Virus genome (UHGV): UHGV-0171500
Source: a virus
Reading direction: 5' to 3' (one strand)
Length of the DNA: 42,456 nt
Below are positions 3,330 to 21,661 of the stretch, in pieces (positions within the stretch are counted from its first letter, which is position 1; the number at the start of each line of letters is the position of its first letter). Position numbers and translations under genes: made by a program. The notes under the pieces were generated by a model that saw only the letters and a list, made by a program, of their open reading frames with translations, was not told the origin of the DNA and did not search any database.

Positions 3330-4160
3330 ATGGCACAAGGAACAACAACTAAAAGTACACAAATCGTTCCAGAAGTATTAAAACCTATGATGCAAGCAGA
3401 ATTAGATAAGAAATTGAGATTTGCACAATTTGCAGACATTGACAGTACATTAGTAGGACAACCAGGCGACACTTTAACTTTCCCTGCATTTGTTTACAGT
3501 GGTGACGCTACAGTAGTACCTGAAGGGCAAAAAATCCCTGTAGACAAAATTGAAACTAACAGACGTGAAGCTAAAATTCATAAAATCGGTAAAGGTACTG
3601 ATATTACTGATGAAGCTTTATTGTCTGGTTATGGTGACCCTCAAGGAGAAGCAGTACGTCAACACGGTTTAGCTATTGCTAACAAAGTAGATAATGACGT
3701 ATTAGAAGCTTTACGAGGTACTAAATTAACTGTAAGTGCAGACATCGGCACATTAGCAGGCTTAGAAGCTGCTATTGATACATTTGACGATGAAGATTTA
3801 GAACCAATGGTATTATTCATTAACCCTAAAGACGCTGGCAAGTTACGTTCTAGTGCTTCTTCAAACTTCACTCGTGCGACTGAATTAGGCGATAACATTA
3901 TCGTTAAAGGTGCATTTGGTGAAGCTTTAGGTGCAGTAATTGTACGTTCTAAGAAATTAGATGAGGGCGAAGCTATTTTAGCTAAACGTGGTGCAGTTAA
4001 ATTAATCACTAAACGTGATTTCTTCTTAGAAACTGACCGTGATCCTTCAACTAAAACAACTGCTTTATACAGTGATAAACATTATGTAGCATACTTATAT
4101 GATGAATCTAAAGCAGTTAAGGTTACTAAAGGCGCAGGAACTACAGACTCAGGCGCATAA
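3330..4160 (+). CDS. Major capsid protein (HK97 fold)
   Basis: 276 aa, strong RBS, position after scaffold, composition typical of MCP. Confidence 0.7.
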   Translation: MAQGTTTKSTQIVPEVLKPMMQAELDKKLRFAQFADIDSTLVGQPGDTLTFPAFVYSGDATVVPEGQKIPVDKIETNRREAKIHKIGKGTDITDEALLSGYGDPQGEAVRQHGLAIANKVDNDVLEALRGTKLTVSADIGTLAGLEAAIDTFDDEDLEPMVLFINPKDAGKLRSSASSNFTRATELGDNIIVKGAFGEALGAVIVRSKKLDEGEAILAKRGAVKLITKRDFFLETDRDPSTKTTALYSDKHYVAYLYDESKAVKVTKGAGTTDSGA

Positions 4161-4176
4161 AAGGAGGTAGTGACGT

Positions 4177-4467
4177 ATGTATAAAGTAATCGAATACTTC
4201 ACAGACTTACAAGATAACAACTACGAATATAACGTTGGAGATACGTTCCCTCGTAAAGGTTTAAATGTAAGTAATGAACGATTAACTGAACTATCCACAA
4301 AAGAGAACCGTCAAAACAAGCCCCTTATTGAGCGTGTAGAGAGCGACAAAGACTTAAAAGGTATGAAAGTATCAGAATTAAGAGAACTCGCTAAAGAACG
4401 TGAAATAGAGGGCTTTTCTAGTATGAAAAAAGATGAACTCATTGAAGCATTAGGAAGTGTTGAGTAA
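4177..4467 (+). CDS. Hypothetical head protein with C-terminal Rho_N/SAP-like motif
   Basis: C-terminal MKVSELRELAKEREIEGFSSMKKDELIEAL resembles the Rho N-terminal helix-hairpin motif. Confidence 0.45.
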   Translation: MYKVIEYFTDLQDNNYEYNVGDTFPRKGLNVSNERLTELSTKENRQNKPLIERVESDKDLKGMKVSELRELAKEREIEGFSSMKKDELIEALGSVE

Positions 4468-4781
4468 TGAACGCACAAGACGTTAAATTATTAAACAATC
4501 TCTCACTCGATGATACTTCAAATGACGAAACAATCGAATTACTTATTGAAAAGTATCTGAATGTAGCTGAAGAATATTGTAATCAAACATTCAATAGGAA
4601 GTCATTACCTAGTAATGTAGAGAAATTCATTGCTAATTGTATTAAACAAGGTACGACTAGCAATATTTCTTCACGTACTATGGGTACTGTGAGCTACACT
4701 TTCGTTACTGATCTACCTAAGGAAACATACGGTTACCTTAAACCATTTAGACGCTTACGTTGGACTGGTTATCATGTTTAA
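4467..4781 (+). CDS. Head-tail connector (gp6-like)
   Basis: 104 aa, start overlaps the preceding stop; standard position in HK97-like late operon. Confidence 0.5.
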   Translation: MNAQDVKLLNNLSLDDTSNDETIELLIEKYLNVAEEYCNQTFNRKSLPSNVEKFIANCIKQGTTSNISSRTMGTVSYTFVTDLPKETYGYLKPFRRLRWTGYHV

Positions 4782-5103
4782 TCCATTAAATGAGTTTCCT
4801 CATACAATCGAATTAGGCTCAAGAGAGGTTGTAGGAGAGTATCCACGTGAACAAGAGCGCTTTAAGAGCGAAAAAACAATACAAGGATTTATGGATACGC
4901 CTACTTCATCTGAACAACTCAAGTTTCATCAAATGAACCAATCATACGACAGAAACCTATATACGCCGTACAGCCTGCCAATAACTAACACAAACTTATT
5001 TAAATACAACGGTAAAACTTACGAAGTAGTAGGAGAACCTGTCGACCAAGGCGGACAACAAGAAATCAACTTAACGAGATTGAGAGAATGTCCTATTGGC
5101 TAA
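4774..5103 (+). CDS. Head-tail adaptor / head closure protein
   Basis: 109 aa, overlapping start, synteny. Confidence 0.45.
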   Translation: MFNPLNEFPHTIELGSREVVGEYPREQERFKSEKTIQGFMDTPTSSEQLKFHQMNQSYDRNLYTPYSLPITNTNLFKYNGKTYEVVGEPVDQGGQQEINLTRLRECPIG

Positions 5104-6512
5104 GGTTAAATACGGAAATTGGGATTTAGTTAAGGAACTTGAGGAGTTTGAAAAAGAAACGATTAGATGGGCTAAAAAAGGTATAGCCAAGACAACAACG
5201 ATTATTCACAATTCAATAGTTAGTAACATGCCTGTTGATACCGGTTATCTTAGAGAAAGTGTTTCTATGGACTTTAAGAAGGGCGGATTAACAGGCGTTA
5301 TTAATATTGGTAGTGAGTATGCAGTGTACGTTAACTACGGTACAGGGGTAGTGTGTATGCCCCACTTATCAGTAATGGTAAGTTAAAAATCGGGCAAAAT
5401 CGGTGAAAGTCTTATATGTAAAATATTGACTGGTATATACGATGAAGGTTTGGTATAATATCCATAAGGAGTGATGTTATGCTAACCAATTCTAAAGGCG
5501 AAGTTTTTGAAGGTAATTTTAGAGACTTGACAGGCAAAAAATTCAATATGTTAAAAGTCATAGAACCAGTAAGGATTCACAATCCACCTAAAGGAGATAG
5601 ATACCTGTATTGGTTAGTAGAGTGTGATTGTGGAAACACTGCAGTTAAATCTGCAAAATCTATAACAACAGGTTATTCCAAAAGTTGTGGATGCTTACAA
5701 AAGATAGCGACAAGCAAGGCTAAAAAAACTCATGGTGATACAGATTCTAGACTGTATTATATATGGGAAAATATGAAGAAACGTTGCTATAAACCAAATT
5801 CCGATAGATACAAAAATTATGGTGCTAGAGGAATAACTATCTGTGAAGAATGGAAAAATAGTTATAAAAATTTCTATGACTGGGCATATAATAATGGTTA
5901 CAATGAACGCTTAACTATTGAAAGAAAAGATATTAACGGTAACTACGAACCTTCAAATTGTACTTGGATAACAAGGAATGAACAAGCTAAAAACAGAACT
6001 AGCAATAAATGGGTATTCCTAGATGGTATTAAGTACTCGCCGCAAGAATTAGAAAAAATATACAAAATATCAATTAACACAATATATGCAAGGATTGCTC
6101 GTGGTGATAAAGGTTACGCTGTTGTTAGACCTTTAGGACAAAGACAATTCTGGAAAAGATAACACCGAGGTAACTTAATAGATTGCGAAAGGCTATTGAG
6201 CACTGTAGAGCGTAGGAAGTGAATAAATATAATCTTCCCAAGAGTGTCCGACAACCAATAATGGTTGTCTTTTTTATTGGTTGAAAATGTACGCCGAACT
6301 TACAGGTGACTGTAAGAAGTAAAGGATAAAAAGCCTTTACGATAACAAGATGATACGCAGTCGGTCCAGGTGGTAGTCGTGCAAAGAATATCCCGTGGCG
6401 TTACAAAGACGCAGACGGACATTGGCACACAACTAAAGGGCAACATGCACAACCTTTCTGGGAACCAGCAATTGATGAAGGTAGAGCGTTTTTCAATAAG
6501 TATTTTTCATAA
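5096..6512 (+). CDS. HK97 gp10-family tail-component gene split by a group I intron: exon 1 5096..5349, exon 2 6440..6512 (predicted 108 aa spliced product ...YVNYGTGV|QHAQPFWEPAIDEGRAFFNKYFS)
   Basis: N-terminal piece ends ...SEYAVYVNYGTG then enters stops; C-terminal AQPFWEPA motif typical of gp10 family lies 1.1 kb downstream with no start codon; 5 bp P1 pairing exon GGGGU with intron GCCCC (5359..5363); proposed 3' splice after G6439. Confidence 0.55.
5350..6439 (+). mobile_element. Group I intron (approx. boundaries) carrying a homing-endonuclease ORF
   Basis: Interrupts an essential structural gene; U at 5' exon end pairing with intron G; terminal G; GACUG...CAGUC candidate P7 (6307..6311 / 6359..6363); internal HEG ORF with own RBS and terminator. 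Confidence 0.55.
5479..6162 (+). CDS. Intron-encoded HNH-like (HNH_3/AP2-type) homing endonuclease with N-terminal Cys4 zinc finger
   Basis: CDCGNT...CGC zinc motif; C-terminal RLTIERKDINGNYEPSNCTWITRNEQAKN resembles the HNH_3 HIDGN..NL...EN core (first His appears replaced); own RBS AAGGAGTGA. Confidence 0.55.
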   Translation: MLTNSKGEVFEGNFRDLTGKKFNMLKVIEPVRIHNPPKGDRYLYWLVECDCGNTAVKSAKSITTGYSKSCGCLQKIATSKAKKTHGDTDSRLYYIWENMKKRCYKPNSDRYKNYGARGITICEEWKNSYKNFYDWAYNNGYNERLTIERKDINGNYEPSNCTWITRNEQAKNRTSNKWVFLDGIKYSPQELEKIYKISINTIYARIARGDKGYAVVRPLGQRQFWKR

Positions 6513-6524
6513 GGTGGTTAAGAT

Positions 6525-6962
6525 ATGTGGGTATCAGTAGAACGGTATCTGTTTAACAAGATATATAACAAATTAAAAAGCAACCCTATCATCAAAAAAC
6601 AGCTTGGTGGTAGGGTTTTTGATTGCGTTCAAAAAGACGCTGTTTACCCATGTATCGTTGTGGGTGAAACAAACGTCACTAACAAAGAGACAACGACAAG
6701 TATGTTTGAAGATGTAGGCGTTACATTGCATGTTTATAGCCAAGCTAGAAATAGAGATGAAGCATCACAAATCATCCAATACTTAGGTTTTGTACTTAAC
6801 TCTGAAATAGAAATAAATAACTATTCATTTATAAAAAGTCGAATTGATACACAAGAAGTGATAACTGACATTGATCAGTACACGAAGCACGGTATCATCC
6901 GGCTTGTTTTTAAATACAGACACAATACTTTACAAAGGAGTGTAACGAATGGCGCAGAATAA
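6525..6962 (+). CDS. Tail terminator / tail completion protein (gp11-like)
   Basis: 145 aa, synteny between gp10-like gene and major tail protein. Confidence 0.45.
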   Translation: MWVSVERYLFNKIYNKLKSNPIIKKQLGGRVFDCVQKDAVYPCIVVGETNVTNKETTTSMFEDVGVTLHVYSQARNRDEASQIIQYLGFVLNSEIEINNYSFIKSRIDTQEVITDIDQYTKHGIIRLVFKYRHNTLQRSVTNGAE

Positions 6963-7488
6963 ATACATTGCAGCGTTACAAATTGCTGACAAAGTTTTAG
7001 CAAGTCAGTTAAAAGAAGAAGATGCTATTCTGTTAGCTAGTTTAGCTGAAGGTGGACACACAATCAGTAATGACTTAGCTGAAATGATTACAGGTGGCAA
7101 AAAAGACTATGGTCGTAACTCTGTAGAAGAAGAAATCAAGTTAACTGTTGACCGTGTTCCTGGCGACAAAGGTCAAGAAGCTTTAAAAGAGTCAGTTAAA
7201 AACTTCAAGCAGTTACGTTTATGGATTTGGGAAGTTAAGAAACGTGACGGTAAACATCACGGTACTTTCGCTTATGTAATTGTAGAAGAGCACGAATGGT
7301 CATTTGATGATGAGGATGACAAAATCGAAATCACTGCAAAAGTTAAATTTAACAGTGCAGACGGTTCTGTTGATTCATTACCACCAGAATGGCTCAACCC
7401 TAGTGCTGCTGCTCCTACAGTTGAATGGGAAGATATGGGAGCTTATACAGACTCATACGAAAACCGTACACCTAGTGCTGATGCATAA
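6949..7488 (+). CDS. Major tail protein
   Basis: 179 aa, directly upstream of G/GT chaperones and followed by a strong terminator (high-expression structural gene pattern). Confidence 0.55.
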   Translation: MAQNKYIAALQIADKVLASQLKEEDAILLASLAEGGHTISNDLAEMITGGKKDYGRNSVEEEIKLTVDRVPGDKGQEALKESVKNFKQLRLWIWEVKKRDGKHHGTFAYVIVEEHEWSFDDEDDKIEITAKVKFNSADGSVDSLPPEWLNPSAAAPTVEWEDMGAYTDSYENRTPSADA

Positions 7489-7492
7489 GTTT

Positions 7493-7521
7493 TACGAGGG
7501 CATTAAGCCCTCTATTTTTTT
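7493..7521 (+). terminator. Rho-independent terminator after major tail gene
   Basis: GAGGGC-attaa-GCCCTC hairpin followed by TATTTTTTTG. Confidence 0.7.
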
Positions 7522-7550
7522 GTACAAAATAACAGAAAGAGGTTAAAAAA

Positions 7551-8045
7551 ATGACTGAAAATACATTCAATCCTATTACTACATTAGAGTTCAACGGAGA
7601 AGAAGTAGAAGCAAAAGCTACTTTCTTATTCGATAAAGCGGCTAAGAAATTTGCTAAAGACGAGCAAGACGAAAATGGTAAAACAACTAAAGTGTCTGGT
7701 TTTAATGCTATTTATAACGGTATTTTAGAACGCGATCCAATCGCAATTGCTGATTTTTGGGAATGTGCAACAGCTTATTTAGGTAAAAATGCACCTAAAC
7801 GTGAAGATATCGAACAAACACTAATGGAAATTATTGATGAAAAAGAAGATTCTATCGAATTATTACAAGGTGCATTGCAAGTATTAAATCATAGTGGTTT
7901 TTTCAAGCAGAAATCACGTCTATTCTGGACACAAATGAACTCAGCACCATCTATGGTCAAAGAAGAAGAGAAAGAGTCTACGAAGAACGGTATCGAGTTC
8001 ATGAAGAACAATTACAAAGAAATCATGGGCGAGCTACCTTACTAG
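7551..8045 (+). CDS. Tail assembly chaperone (gpG-like)
   Basis: 164 aa, immediately upstream of tape measure gene; contains the slippery site near 7898. Confidence 0.65.
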   Translation: MTENTFNPITTLEFNGEEVEAKATFLFDKAAKKFAKDEQDENGKTTKVSGFNAIYNGILERDPIAIADFWECATAYLGKNAPKREDIEQTLMEIIDEKEDSIELLQGALQVLNHSGFFKQKSRLFWTQMNSAPSMVKEEEKESTKNGIEFMKNNYKEIMGELPY

Positions 8046-8410
8046 ATTATTCAGAAATACGGCAGATAACCAGTCAATACATAGGCTATCTTCCTTATGA
8101 TGAATTAATGAGTTTGACGCCTAATGAATGGAAAGACTGGGTTGTAGGTCGTAGATTGGCGTTACTTGATGAACAAGAAACTTTATTATTTGGTGCTCAA
8201 GCTAACGGTCTTGTGCAAGCTGGTAAATCACTTAAACGATTACAGAAGCAGTTAGAGCGTGCAAGATACGAAGTACGTGGACAGTCAGAAGAATACGAAC
8301 GTATGAAAGAACGTAAGTTAGCACATAACAAACGCATTAGAAATGTTCAGAAACAAGGTACACGACGCTTTATGAATTCATTACGCAATACTAGTCAAAA
8401 AGGAGGTTAG
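7551..8410 (+). CDS. Tail assembly chaperone GT-like fusion produced by programmed -1 frameshift at T_TTT_TTC (7898..7904)
   Basis: -1 frame opens (TAG at 7892..7894) immediately before the heptamer and runs to 8410; conserved G/GT arrangement upstream of TMP. Confidence 0.6.
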
Positions 8411-8412
8411 CC

Positions 8413-11400
8413 ATGAATAAAAACTTTATGGCTCGTATATCGGCGATCATTACAGATTTCCAACGGAATATCAGAAAAGCTCAACGTATGGCTAAAACTG
8501 AAATACCTGACGAGATTGAAACACAAGTCGATGCGAATATCAGTAAGTTTAAACGAGCCTTAAACACTGCAAAAGCAATGGCTCAACGTTGGCGTGGACA
8601 CACCGTTGAAATAGACGGTAACAACAACCCTATCAAACGAGCAATTGCAGTAGTTAAAGAGAAATTACAGCAATTAAGAGATAAAGAAGTAGATATTAAA
8701 GGTAACAACAACCCCTTAAAACGTTCAGTATTAGGTGCTAAAGCTATGCTTGCAACCTTACATGATAAAACAGTAAAAGTTAACTTTGATACAAGGGGAA
8801 TGACAAGAGCTCAAGTATTAACTAGAGCTTTAAGTCAGTCTTTAGATGAATACGGCGACAAAATGGATAGATTAGCTACTCGTATTCGTACATTTGGTAC
8901 TGTGTTTGGACAACAAATCAAAGGTGTGCTAATCGCTAGTTTTCAAGGTCTTATTCCTATTATAGCTGGTTTAGTACCTGCCATCATGGCAGTAGCTAAC
9001 GCATTAGGTGTAGTTGCTGGTGGTGCCTTAGGTGTAGCTGGTGCATTTGGTATCGCTGCAGGTGGTGCGTTTGCATTTGGCGCTATGGCAGTAAGTGCAA
9101 TTAAAATGTTGAATGACGGAACATTACAAGCCACTGCACAAACAAGAAGATATCAAGCGTCTTTAGAACAAGTTAAGTCAACTTGGGAAGGCATTATCAA
9201 GCAAAATCAAGCGCAGATATTCAACACACTATCTAATGCTTTAGATACAGTTAACGTAGCTTTAGGGCGTATGAAACCATTCTTAGCAGGTATCTCTAAA
9301 GGAATGGAACAAGCGTCACAGAGTGTCTTAAAATGGGCTCAAAACAGTCAAACTGCTAGCAAATTCTTTAACATGATGAATACAACAGGTGTTAAGACAT
9401 TCAACACATTATTAAGTGCTGCAGGACGTTTTGGTGACGGACTTATTAATGTATTCACTCAATTAGGTCCACTATTCTTATGGACTGCTAAAGGCTTAGA
9501 TAATCTAGGTAAAAAGTTCCAAAACTGGGCTAACAGTGTAGCAGGTCAGAACGCTATTAAGTCGTTTATTGAATACACTAAAACTAATTTACCTAAAATA
9601 GGTCAAATATTTGGCAATGTATTCATGGGTATTGGTAACTTGATGAAAGCATTTGCTCAAAACAGCTCTAATATCTTTGATTGGCTAGTTAAAATGACTG
9701 CTAAGTTTAGAGAATGGTCTGAACAAGTTGGTAAATCTGAAGGATTTAAAAAGTTTGTTCAGTATGTACAAGAGAATGGTCCAGTCATTATGGATCTAAT
9801 CGGTAATATCGTAAGAGTTTTGGTTGCATTCGGCACTGCAATGGCGCCAATAGCAAGTGTGATATTAAAAGTAGTAACAGCATTAGCTGGTTTCATAGCT
9901 AAGTTGTTTGAAACACACCCAGCTATAGCTCGAATGATTGGTATAGGTATGATACTCGGTGGTATGTTGTGGGCTTTACTAGCACCAATCATCGCAGTAG
10001 GTACATTATTAGAAACATTCTTTAGTAGTAGTCTATTCAAAGCTATGACTAAAATGTTAGCTTTTGCTAGAAACACTCAAATACTTAGAAGCGCGTTAAA
10101 CCTAGTGAAAATCGCATTTAGACTTCTCATGAGCCCTATTAGTACAATTATGCGTATCTTACCTATGTTAAGTGGTGCATTCCAAGCGTTAGGTGTAGCT
10201 ATAGGTGCGATTTCATGGCCTGTATTGGCTATCATAGGCGTTATCGTTGCTTTAATAGGTATTATTGTTTGGTTGTGGAAAACAAATGAGAATTTCAGAA
10301 AAACTTGTATTGAAGCTTGGAACACAATTAAAGATACGATAATGAACGCTGTAAAATCAGTGATTAACTGGTTCAATCAGTTCAGAGCGTCTATCGAACA
10401 AACATTACAACCAATTATCCCTATCTTACAAATGTTAGGGCAAGTTGCAAACCAAGTTCTCGGCTTCTTATTCATCAGCCTTATCAATGGTTTAGTAACT
10501 GCTTTCCAATCTCTTTGGACTGTGATTTCAGTAGTATTCACTGCGATAGGTGGAATACTACAAGCTGCTACGCAATTGATTTTCGGTTTGTTTACTGCAT
10601 TAATACAGCTCCTTACCGGAGATTTTTCTGGCGCTTGGCAAACTTTACAAACTACGATTTCTAATGTAATGACTACGATTTGGAATACGTTAGTATCAAT
10701 TTGGAACCAGATTTCTAACTTCATATTCAACGTTTTAAACAGAATACTTGGTACTAATATTACAAGTTGGAACCAAATTTGGTCTGCGATTTCAGGCGCA
10801 GTTACTAGAATTTGGAACACGGTGTCAAGTTGGTTTTCACGTGTAGTTTCAACCGTTGCTCAAAAAATGATGCAAGCACTCAGTCGTATCATTTCTGGTG
10901 GTGCACAATGGGTTTCAAGTATCATTTCTGCAATGAGTAGATTTTTACAAGCAGTTGTTAGTGGTTTCTTCAGAGTGGTTGGCGCTGTAGGAAATGGCAT
11001 GAGAACTGCATTAAATCGAGCTCGAAGTTTTATTGGAGGTTTCTTTCAAGCAGGTGTTGATATGATAGCTGGAATGATTAGAGGTATCGTTCAAAAAGCT
11101 AAAGATTTAGCAGCAGCTGCATGGAACGCTGCAAAAGGTGCATTGAACGCTGCAAAAAGTGCTTTGGATAGTCATTCTCCTTCTCGTAAATTCATACAAC
11201 TAGGTAATGATAGTATGACTGGATTAGGTATGGGTATCTCTGAATATGCAGGAAAAGCTGCAAGAGAAAGTAAATTAGCGGCGTTAAAAGTTATGGATGC
11301 CTTCAACGCAGACTTAAAACCGGACTTTTTAGAAGAAGGATTGGCTGGTTTAGGAAATTCTTTCGATGCACATATGAGTAAAGACGTACGCCATAGCATG

Positions 11401-19513: not shown

Positions 19514-21661
19514 ATGGGATTACCTAATCCTAAAAGAAGAAAACCTACTGCTTCGGAAGTTGCAGCATGGGCAAAAAGAATGATTGGCAGAAGAGTTGAT
19601 GTAGATGGTTATTATGGCGCCCAGTGTTGAATCTAGCACCTTTGATGAGTAATCATCATAGCAAACTCCTCTAATTCATGGGAACCCTAAACAAGTTATG
19701 TTGTAGGCAATCATGAGCGAAGCCTATAAATAGGAACGTGCAACGACTAGTCGAAAGACGTACACTCAAGCGAGTGGAAACGGGGAGCAACCTAATAGGT
19801 TGATGATATAGTCTGAACATTCATAGAAATATGAAGAAGGTGACAAGTGGCGATTGTCATCGTAACAAAATTGTGGGATTTACCAAACTACATTTTCAAT
19901 AGATATTGGCATTTCAAAACAACAGGAAATGCGATTGCTATGGCGTGGTATAGATATCCTAAAGGGTTCAAATTCTATAGGAATACTAGAAACTTTGTTC
20001 CGAAACCCGGAGATATGGCTGTATGGGGTACAGGTTCTTTTAATAATGGCACAGGACATACAGCTGTTGTAGTAGGTCCATCTAACAAGAGTTACTTCAC
20101 CAGTGTGGATCAAAATTGGCGAAATGCAAACGGTTATACCGGTTCTCCCGGTTCGTTAGAAAAACACACATACTATGGTATAAGTGGGTTCGTCAGACCT
20201 CCCTACCACGCAGAAACTAAGAAACCATCGAAACCAAGTAGTACACCGTCCAAACCCTCTAATGAAAACACTCCTAAAAACACAAAAGAACAAACGAAAC
20301 CTATAACTAAAGAGGTTACCAAAGTTTCCTATACATCGTTCGCATATGATTTAGACGATGATTTGGAATATATTTATCATTATATGGTTGAAGGGCAAAA
20401 GTTGATAGGGAAAGTAAAAGGTATATATATCAAAGAGAGTACACATATGCGTTCTGTTGAAGAATTGTATTTACAACGTAATAAATATGTGAATGAAGAT
20501 GAATACCCTCATGTATATATAGACCGTGAGCGTGTATGGACACCTAGACCTGATTCAGAAGAAGCACCAGAACATCCAGGTTGGCTTGTTATGGAAGTTT
20601 GCGGAGGACAAACGGATAGCAAACGCCAATTCATGCTCAATCAAATCAGAGCGTTAATCTACGGCGTTTGGTTGCTAAGTTGGAGTAAGGTGAAACTTTC
20701 TGAATCGTCAATCAAAGCAGATCCTAACATATGGCGTTCTATGAAAGATTTAATCAATTACGACTTAATCAAAAATGGTATTCCTGATGAAAGTAAATAT
20801 AAAGAAGTCGAGAAGAAAATTATCGGTTTATATTTGAAAAGAGATAAATTACTTACAGAAACAATTACTACAACAACTACAAAGACAAAGATAAAAATTA
20901 AACCTAAAACTTCGGTCGACAATCCTTCACAGAACGATAAGTCGACAGGTAAAACGACAAACAGAACTTCAAATAAACCTCGTGTAGTTGTAGAGAAAAG
21001 TAAATATACTTTCCAACAAGCGCTTAATGCACAAATGGCTCATGGCATGCCTCAAAAATCTTATAGTTGGGGTTGGGGTAATGCTTCTAGGTCACAAACA
21101 AGTAAGTATATGAATCCTAACACTATATGGAATAGTTCAACTCAACGCTATCAAATGCTAGATTTAGGAAAATATCAAGGTATATCAGTAAGTAAGTTGA
21201 ATAAGATACTTAAAGGTAAAGGCACTTTATCTGGACAAGGTAAAGCTTTTGCAGACGGTTGTAAGAAGTACAATGTAAATGAAATTTACTTAATTGCTCA
21301 CGCTTTCTTAGAAAGTGGATATGGCCGTAGTAACTTTGCTAGTGGGCGCTATGGAATTTATAACTACTTTGGTATTGCAGCATATGATAACAACCCTAAC
21401 GCTTCTATAGCGTATGCCAAACGCCAAGGCTGGACAAGTCCACGTAATGGTATTATAGGTGGTGCTAAGTTCGTTAGGAAACAATACTTTAACAAAGGTA
21501 AAAACACCTTATACAGAATGCGTTGGAATCCTAGTAATCCAGGTCGTATGCAATATGCTACTGCTATCGAATGGTGTAATTTCCAAGCAACAACAATAAA
21601 CAGTTTGTACAAAAAAGTAGGATTAAAAGGTATGTATTATATCAGAGATAAATATAGATAA
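19514..21661 (+). CDS. Virion-associated peptidoglycan hydrolase (CHAP + glucosaminidase/LYZ2), two exons: 19514..19627 and 19874..21661
   Basis: Exon 1 ends ...VDVDGYYGAQC; exon 2 begins WDLPNYIFNRYW..., together an uninterrupted LytA-type CHAP motif; C-terminal YNYFGIAAYDNNP... glucosaminidase domain. Confidence 0.75.
19628..19873 (+). mobile_element. ORF-less group I intron in the CHAP domain of the tail lysin gene
   Basis: In-frame TGA right after Cys codon; P1 exon GUGU pairing with intron GCAC (19636..19639); R-like element AACGACTAGTC (19742..19752) and S-like GATATAGTCT (19810..19819); terminal G at 19873. Confidence 0.7.

Follow-up and report, generated by a model that had tools for sequence, protein, structure and literature searches.

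A predicted mobile group I intron in the HK97-gp10-like gene of a Staphylococcus epidermidis phage genome

The virus genome UHGV-0171500, analysed over its whole stretch of 42,456 nucleotides (nt; the window), raises the question of how a head-tail protein of the HK97-gp10-like family can be made from a gene whose two parts are separated by an unrelated open reading frame (ORF), and of what kind of element it is that separates them. The original prediction was that a group I intron with an endonuclease ORF splits the gene, and the exact insertion and the covarying core described below bear this out: positions 5350..6352 very probably form a mobile intron of group I, subgroup IA, in the gp10-like gene of a Rockefellervirus-type Staphylococcus epidermidis phage or prophage. 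The window is a siphovirus of S. epidermidis of the PH15/CNPH82 type (Rockefellervirus), and over 24 kb it shares 95-96% identity with phiIPLA5, E72 and PH15; none of the phage records searched is identical to it.

Boundaries of the insertion and the predicted spliced product

The ORF at 5096..5386 (+ strand), which has a TTG start and codes for 96 amino acids (aa), matches PF04883 (HK97-gp10_like) with 38.6 bits, in agreement with its earlier assignment as the N-terminal part of a protein of this family. The corresponding gene of PH15, ph11, is uninterrupted, its 414 nt encoding a 137-aa "HK97 gp10 family protein". In a base-by-base alignment the window matches ph11 at 5096-5349 and again at 6353-6512, and therefore the insertion is 5350..6352, exactly 1,003 nt. 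It is absent in about a dozen close relatives, including PH15, CNPH82, IME1348_01, CNPx and phiIPLA5/7, and the same intron is present in the deposited phage records PG-2021_90 (99.6% identity) and BE20 (95.7%). The parts of the split gene are the following.

5096..5349, + strand: exon 1 of the HK97-gp10-like head-tail (tail completion) gene, colinear with PH15 ph11 to 5349 (PF04883, 37-38 bits)
5350..6352, + strand: predicted group I intron of 1,003 nt, subgroup IA-like, from the exact insertion relative to PH15, covariation and a family model (188.6 bits)
5479..6162, + strand: intron ORF of 227 aa, putative homing endonuclease, in the P5 loop (PHROG 374)
6353..6512, + strand: exon 2 of the gp10-like gene, from A TAC GCA GUC ... 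to the stop codon; identity with PH15 begins at 6353

Exon 1 ends with ...GGU ACA GGG GU (last bases ...ACAGGGGU), exon 2 begins with AUACGCAGUC, and the ph11 DNA that spans the empty insertion site is GGTACAGGGATATACGCAGTC. The intron begins with AGUGUGUAUGCCCC and ends with ...GAUAACAAGAUG (...AAGAUG), its terminal nucleotide being G6352. The junction 5349|6353 is the sole one with a U at the last position of exon 1 (5349) and a G at the last position of the intron (6352); the junction 5350|6354 gives the same mRNA. Two other placements were rejected: the junction 5348|6352 is in frame but violates both the U and the G end rules, and a 3' splice site at 6364|6365, with CAGUCGG taken as P7 plus terminal G, is excluded by the PH15 alignment. 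The alignment with intron-less relatives also settles what had been proposed for the splice sites. The 5' splice site after U5349, with a P1 of GGGGU and GCCCC, stands, and so does a terminal G, although at 6352 rather than 6439; the 3' splice site had been placed at 6439|6440, whereas it is at 6352|6353, and the length of the product changes with it.

Excision of the 1,003 nt restores the frame and gives a gene colinear with its intron-less homologues. The predicted spliced protein is of 137 aa and not, as first proposed, of 108 aa with a GT-x4-AQPF spacing; it contains ...GTGVYAVGPGGSRAKNIPWRYKDADGHWHTTKGQHAQPF..., its junction region is ...YGTGVYAVGPGGSR, which spans GTGVYAVGPGG, and it differs from the PH15 ph11 protein by a single residue change, I85V. 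It matches the gp10 equivalog TIGR01725 with 38.1 bits (cut-off 30.8) over residues 10-130, which covers both exons, PF04883 with 37.4 bits (cut-off 21.4) over residues 11-82, and PHROG 5 ("tail completion or Neck1") with E 1e-24.

The reading frame of exon 2 is open from 6354 to the stop codon at 6510-6512. This frame has no ATG, GTG or TTG, and neither a start codon nor a ribosome-binding site (RBS) of its own, and therefore it is translatable only once joined to exon 1. The AQPFWEPA motif is encoded at about 6447-6470. The C-terminal fragment had been described by this motif and by the lack of a start codon, which is correct; its confinement to 6447..6512 is not, as the identity with PH15 begins at 6353. 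Compared with PH15, exon 2 has five nucleotide differences, which are all synonymous (0 non-synonymous), and compared with PG-2021_93 there are 14 synonymous and three non-synonymous differences: exon 2 is under in-frame purifying selection.

Fold of the predicted ribozyme and its family

The elements of the predicted ribozyme are found on both sides of the intron ORF, as listed here.

5352..5363, + strand: internal guide sequence, UGUGUAU (5352-58) for P10 and GCCCC (5359-63) for P1
5364..5383, + strand: P2 hairpin of 8 bp with a GUAA loop, from the minimum-free-energy fold of the ORF-deleted intron
5390..5413, + strand: 5' strands of P3 (5390-95), P4 (5400-05) and P5 (5410-13), with A-rich J3/4 and J4/5, from covariation
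6154..6200, + strand: P5' (6154-57), P4' (6163-68), P6 (6169-71/6202-04) and P6a (6174-81/6193-6200), from covariation and RNAalifold
6208..6295, + strand: predicted catalytic centre with P7 (6208, 6210-14/6290-95), P7.1 (6215-19/6234-38), P3' (6246-51) and P8 (6252-61/6274-83), from covariation
6250..6275, + strand: terminator-like hairpin GACAACCA-AUAA-UGGUUGUC followed by U6 (stem-loop 6250-6269), overlapping P3' and the 5' strand of P8
6299..6340, + strand: P9 (6299-6305/6310-16, GUGA loop; 95% paired) and P9.1 (6319-25/6334-40, conserved AUAAAAAG loop; 93% paired)

The guide sequence lies within the first 14 nt of the insert. Its 3' part pairs with the last bases of exon 1 (GGGGU, 5345-49, with GCCCC, 5359-63) to form a P1 of 5 bp, in which U5349·G5359 is at the splice site, and 5352-58 pairs with 6353-59 of exon 2 to form a P10 of 7 bp, so that P1 and P10 adjoin each other on a single guide sequence. 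The frame of exon 1 terminates at UAA 5384-86, immediately before the core; a stop codon early in the intron is general in phage and bacterial group I introns (Tourasse & Kolstø, PMC2504315). The order of the helices from P1 to P9.1 is canonical, with the P3/P7 pseudoknot, and the core is interrupted by the ORF. The strands of P5 flank the ORF, which therefore sits in L5.

In P7, A6209 is bulged, the pairs G6210-C6294 and C6211-G6293 do not vary in any of the 17 sequences, and 6208-6295, which flanks them, is a covarying pair (G-C, A-U or C-G). This pattern, with a bulge beside a conserved G-C pair, fits the predicted guanosine-binding site. The P7 first proposed, GACUG...CAGUC, is replaced by these strands, the CAGUC at 6358-62 being in the exon. 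The additional helix P7.1 between P7 and P3' is present and covarying, and some relatives have a hairpin inserted inside it. J8/7 is AAAAUG. A short, terminator-type stem was considered for P8 and given up for the long P8, because J8/7 must come after the second copy of the duplicated UGGUUG (6262-67 and 6278-83). With the ORF deleted, P1, P2, P3-P6, P7.1, P8, P9 and P9.1 all appear in the minimum-free-energy fold.

Many phages have, in each case within a split gene, a relative of the 3' core (6160-6352), with identities of 67-98%.

gp10-like genes: BE28, PG-2021_93, ROSA, phiCDKH02, S. aureus and Lysinibacillus prophages
terminase large subunit (terL) genes: JCL1032 (annotated join), S-CoN_Ph1, SA2, CpeS-1181, the crAss-like cr7_1 and cr131_1
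tape measure genes: Javan355, MissB1, TPWB06
helicase or ATPase genes: PJN02, cr118_1, cr6_1

Pairing was evaluated in an alignment of 17 sequences, in which the control was to slide the partners by 1-3 columns, with 500 shuffles. P6a, P7, P7.1, P8, P9 and P9.1 are 93.3% paired, compared with 29-42% for slid partners; changes on both sides are seen in 33 of 43 pairs, and none of the 500 shuffles attains the observed values. In P7 and P7.1 pairing is 100%, with compensatory changes, which P9 and P9.1 show too, and covariation is seen in the outer pairs of P8. P3 and P4 together are 99% paired with double changes in nine of 12 pairs, where the 20-nt P3-P4 segments were chosen by a P4-based pattern; P3, of which all six pairs are compensatory, is independent of this choice. 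The window core keeps all the family-invariant positions, and all 17 relatives have the 3' end of the family, ...GAUAACA-N-UG, aligned at 6352.

When the window, BE28 and ROSA are omitted, RNAalifold returns P6, P6a, P7, P7.1, P8 and P9 from the 14 more distant members. A leave-out covariance model (R1) built from these 14 relatives and the RNAalifold structure matches the window at 6160-6353 (+ strand) with 188.6 bits and E 1e-47. The only other significant match of R1 in the window, at 19708-19873 (25.7 bits, E 4e-5), is mostly inside a second intron, 19617-19836, which is certified by the Rfam model RF00028, and the P4', P6, P7, P8, P7' and P9 of R1 align helix for helix with the Rfam alignment of this intron. 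This cross-match ties the family to canonical group I introns.

Two insertion sites are used in the gp10-like gene. Site B, ...GTG(V/I)|YA..., is used by the window, PG-2021_90, BE20 and the S. aureus prophages L019 and L020 only. Site A, ...EYA|IYVNYG, which is 24 nt upstream of site B, is used by BE28, PG-2021_93, ROSA, phiCDKH02 and a Lysinibacillus prophage. The site-A introns share with that of the window the host gene, the endonuclease family (38-61% identity) and the 3' core (76-98% identical); for PG-2021_93 the 3' core is 97.9% identical to that of the window, whereas the guide, P2 and the ORF differ. The guide is ACGUAU-G-UCGCA at site A and UGUGUAU-G-CCCC in the window, and P2 differs in sequence but has the same GUAA loop. 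In the S. aureus prophage L019, at site B, P1 is GGGAU/GUCCC and P10 is GCAUAU/AUAUGC, so that the exons and the guide have changed in compensation. Homologous cores that are retargeted through P1 and guide changes are known for Bacillus prophage introns (PMC2504315).

As a separate observation, the family is found at the loci L002-L017 with the motifs UGAAUAAAUAUAAU (L7.1) and GAUAAAAAG (L9.1) and the GAUAACA-N-UG 3' end; its hosts are phages of Firmicutes and crAss-like phages, and RF00028 misses all of these loci at E<=1.

Proposed splicing and the alternatives

It is proposed that the late transcript would fold into the ribozyme, in which both exons would be aligned by the guide 5352-5363, exon 1 through its last 5 nt (P1) and exon 2 through its first 7 nt (P10). 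A guanosine held in P7 would attack after U5349, the freed exon 1 would attack after the terminal G6352, and the ligated mRNA would be translated into the 137-aa protein that is colinear with the intron-less orthologues. Translation entering the intron from exon 1 would halt at UAA 5384-86, ahead of the core. The product of the 227-aa ORF, a presumed homing endonuclease, would spread the intron to intron-less gp10 alleles in co-infection. From the sequence, we infer self-splicing of the RNA, an active homing endonuclease and subgroup IA1.

Several points weigh against an active intron of this kind. No experimental splicing report was found for this intron or its family. RF00028 gives no match at 5000-6800 with E<=10, and nothing at the gp10 locus when the whole window is scanned at the gathering threshold. 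The Rfam/Infernal search for group I introns suggested in the original prediction is, however, uninformative here: the 16 related loci that were searched also give no match, including the ORF-less cr118_1 and MissB1 and the terL of JCL1032, so the negative reflects the model more than the locus. RF00028 is incomplete for phage introns according to a recent survey (PMC11878797). The strong terminator-like hairpin within the intron could compete with the folding of the ribozyme. The assignment to subgroup IA, probably IA1-like, is an analogy with PMC2504315. In addition to the P4-based choice of segments mentioned above, several of the 5' splice sites of the relatives were picked by the logic of P1, those in gp10 being fixed by intron-less comparison; the comparison of P1 helices is partly circular, because the 5' sites of relatives were chosen via P1. 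For JCL1032, the check was that the predicted 226-nt intron keeps the annotated span of the coding sequence (CDS) in frame.

A different account of the locus is that a free-standing endonuclease gene is inserted in gp10 and that there is no splicing, the two halves being separate polypeptides or the gene being dead, as in a decaying prophage. This is improbable. The BE28 and ROSA loci are indeed annotated in GenBank as separate CDSs, the Pfam gp10 domain is wholly inside exon 1, and the missing RF00028 match is also in line with it. Yet exon 2, with no start codon or RBS, is under in-frame purifying selection, a group I fold with covariation is formed by the non-coding sequence on either side of the ORF, and the ends of the insertion obey the U and G rules and carry the guide sequence; moreover, the occurrence in PG-2021_90 and BE20 is in deposited phage records.

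A little less probable again is a relic intron whose ribozyme activity is lost, in which case a second copy of gp10 would be needed or the phage would be defective. That splicing itself is predicted from sequence, and that the L8 insert makes a competing terminator hairpin, would agree with such a relic, but the core scores 188.6 bits compared with 177-188 bits in its relatives, the family-invariant positions are all kept, exon 2 is conserved, and a second gp10-like ORF is not seen in the head-tail module (3500-8500). Almost certainly wrong is the intron 5350-6439 of the original prediction (splicing at 5349|6440 to give 108 aa, with GACUG...CAGUC as P7), which keeps the frame and has U5349 and G6439 at its ends, but which removes 29 conserved codons (6353-6439, encoding YAVGPGGSRAKNIPWRYKDADGHWHTTKG, with synonymous changes only), whereas the intron-less orthologue is of 137 aa with identical DNA from 6353 onward, P10 pairs with 6353-6359, the 3' end of the family is at 6352 and the CAGUC of that P7 is exonic.

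Intron ORF, L8 hairpin and related introns

The group I intron 5350..6352 contains the 227-aa ORF (5479..6162), which has, as proposed, its own RBS (AAGGAG, 5466-5471), and whose UAA stop codon is J5/4. It matches PHROG 374, "HNH endonuclease", with E 8e-68, and PHROG 3377 has the same label. No Pfam HNH family is matched at E<=1, and there is no match in NCBIfam or to a PDB sequence; the AF2 model (pLDDT 90) gives nothing in a Foldseek search of the PDB at E<=0.001, only a weak fold match being seen. The HNH part of the label given to the ORF earlier rests on PHROG 374 and this weak fold match, with no support from Pfam, NCBIfam or PDB. The invariant residues are four cysteines (CxC...CGC), R149, Y156, N160 and N172, and there is no invariant histidine in the family alignment; a HNH-like protein with a zinc ribbon is plausible from this pattern. 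The family of the intron ORF counts 1,431 matches at E<=1e-5, and those listed carry no Pfam domains or functional names. The ORFs of the gp10 introns of BE28, ROSA and phiCDKH02 are 38-43% identical to the intron ORF, and those of the Lysinibacillus and S. aureus prophages 61-70%. For mobility, the evidence is the patchy presence and absence among close relatives. The family may be one of uncharacterised homing endonucleases that combine a zinc ribbon (CxC...CGC) with a degenerate HNH-like module lacking the canonical histidine.

A possible -10 element, TGGTATAAT (5451-59, TGnTATAAT-like), was spotted by eye upstream of this ORF, which suggests an intron-internal promoter for the putative endonuclease. 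A sigma-70 scan gave no significant promoter for the ORF; the scan missed the TATAAT box because there is no -35 element at the right spacing. At other loci (L002, L003, L012, L018, L019 and L021) a TATAAT box, often with TGn before it, is also seen about 10-20 nt upstream of the RBS of the endonuclease.

Downstream, the terminator-like hairpin (6250-6269) and P3 with the long P8 are mutually exclusive, and their energies, -11.3 and -10.4 kcal/mol, respectively, are nearly equal. A terminator for the ORF had been proposed; the hairpin exists but overlaps P3' and P8 of the predicted ribozyme. A possible role for it is that of a termination/splicing switch. Separately, it is observed that BE28, ROSA and PG-2021_93 also have the L8 hairpin and the run of U, of which the S. 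aureus and Lysinibacillus prophages L019 and L021 carry a variant. The staphylococcal gp10 introns with an intrinsic-terminator insert in L8 may use it as a switch, ending endonuclease transcripts or giving the splicing-competent fold. We consider it rather unlikely that these features hold jointly as a new endonuclease family and an L8 switch, in which case the near-identical cores 24 nt apart would record a recent retargeting of the guide within one gene.

With respect to known systems, the introns of Twort orf142 are reportedly RF00028-type phage group I introns. The RF00028-type introns (those of hyd, described below, of PH15 and of Twort) have the same helix order and P7 junction motifs as the window family, and their splicing chemistry is presumably the same. 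The window family differs from them as a separate sequence family, with a P7.1 loop UGAAU...AAAUAUAAU, the P9.1 loop AUAAAAAG and the ORF in L5. There is ample documentation of phage group I introns that carry endonuclease ORFs and lie in genes for morphogenesis and packaging (PMC2504315, PMC3706429, PMC3984707). The closest description is that of prophage group I introns of the B. cereus group by Tourasse & Kolstø (2008; PMC2504315), named TMP-IVS1 to IVS3, term-IVS1/IVS2 and tail tube, which are of IA1 or IA2. Like the predicted intron of the window, they are in-frame, are hosted by phage morphogenesis and packaging genes, have an early intron stop and optionally an endonuclease ORF in a loop; unlike them, the host in the window is a HK97-gp10-like gene, with the site GTG(V)|YAVG. 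By BLASTN, the catalytic RNA of term-IVS2 is reported there to match phage ROSA and that of term-IVS1 to match Lactobacillus phage JCL1032, and the introns at the ROSA and JCL1032 loci are homologous to the window core; the B. cereus sequences are likened through the paper only, which names no host gene for the ROSA match. That structural genes of the virion can depend on RNA splicing has a precedent, in unrelated hosts and phages, in the introns in capsid and tail genes of Cluster J mycobacteriophages (PMC3706429).

In the literature covered, to which Kwan et al. 2005 (PMC556006) does not belong, no paper was found on an intron in a HK97-gp10-like gene. In the records of BE28, ROSA and phiCDKH02 the pieces are entered as separate genes, gp10 as a truncated "tail completion" gene and a "HNH endonuclease", with hypothetical ORFs in addition in BE28, whereas the real product of gp10 is the predicted spliced protein of 137 aa. 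The gp10 intron is an unannotated, newly recognised one of a kind already known. It is biologically an ordinary mobile group I intron; the added interest lies in the two sites 24 nt apart, the covariation of guide and exons and the poorly characterised endonuclease family. The intron family is seen in Staphylococcus, Lysinibacillus, Clostridioides, Clostridium, Bacillus, Lactobacillus, Streptococcus and crAss-like phages, and since RF00028 misses this widespread family, scans based on RF00028 under-count phage introns.

Other introns were noted in passing. The second group I intron of the window, 19617-19836 (+ strand; RF00028, 93.8 bits), has no ORF and lies between exons at about 19514-19616 and 19837-21661. 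It splits the tail-associated cell-wall hydrolase gene (hyd) at the CHAP active-site motif, ...YYGAQC|WDLPNY. A non-coding intron is predicted in hyd of phage E72, and two other introns of PH15 are reported to be spliced in vivo (PMC7235722, citing Daniel 2007), and because of these reports the hyd intron is probably the already known one. For the crAss-like phages cr7_1 and cr131_1 (L005 and L009), the annotated terL CDS runs into the intron and stops there; the 3' exon of terL is apparently unannotated, because the portal CDS begins >600 nt past the intron end. In terL of Staphylococcus phage SA2 (L013), where RF00028 gave nothing, a copy of the family core at about 1478-1681 is followed at about 1750-2610 by a second RF00028-like core motif (UUCAUGGAAAC...CAAUCAUGAGCGAAG) with an ORF, after which terL resumes, and this arrangement may be one of tandem introns or a twintron.

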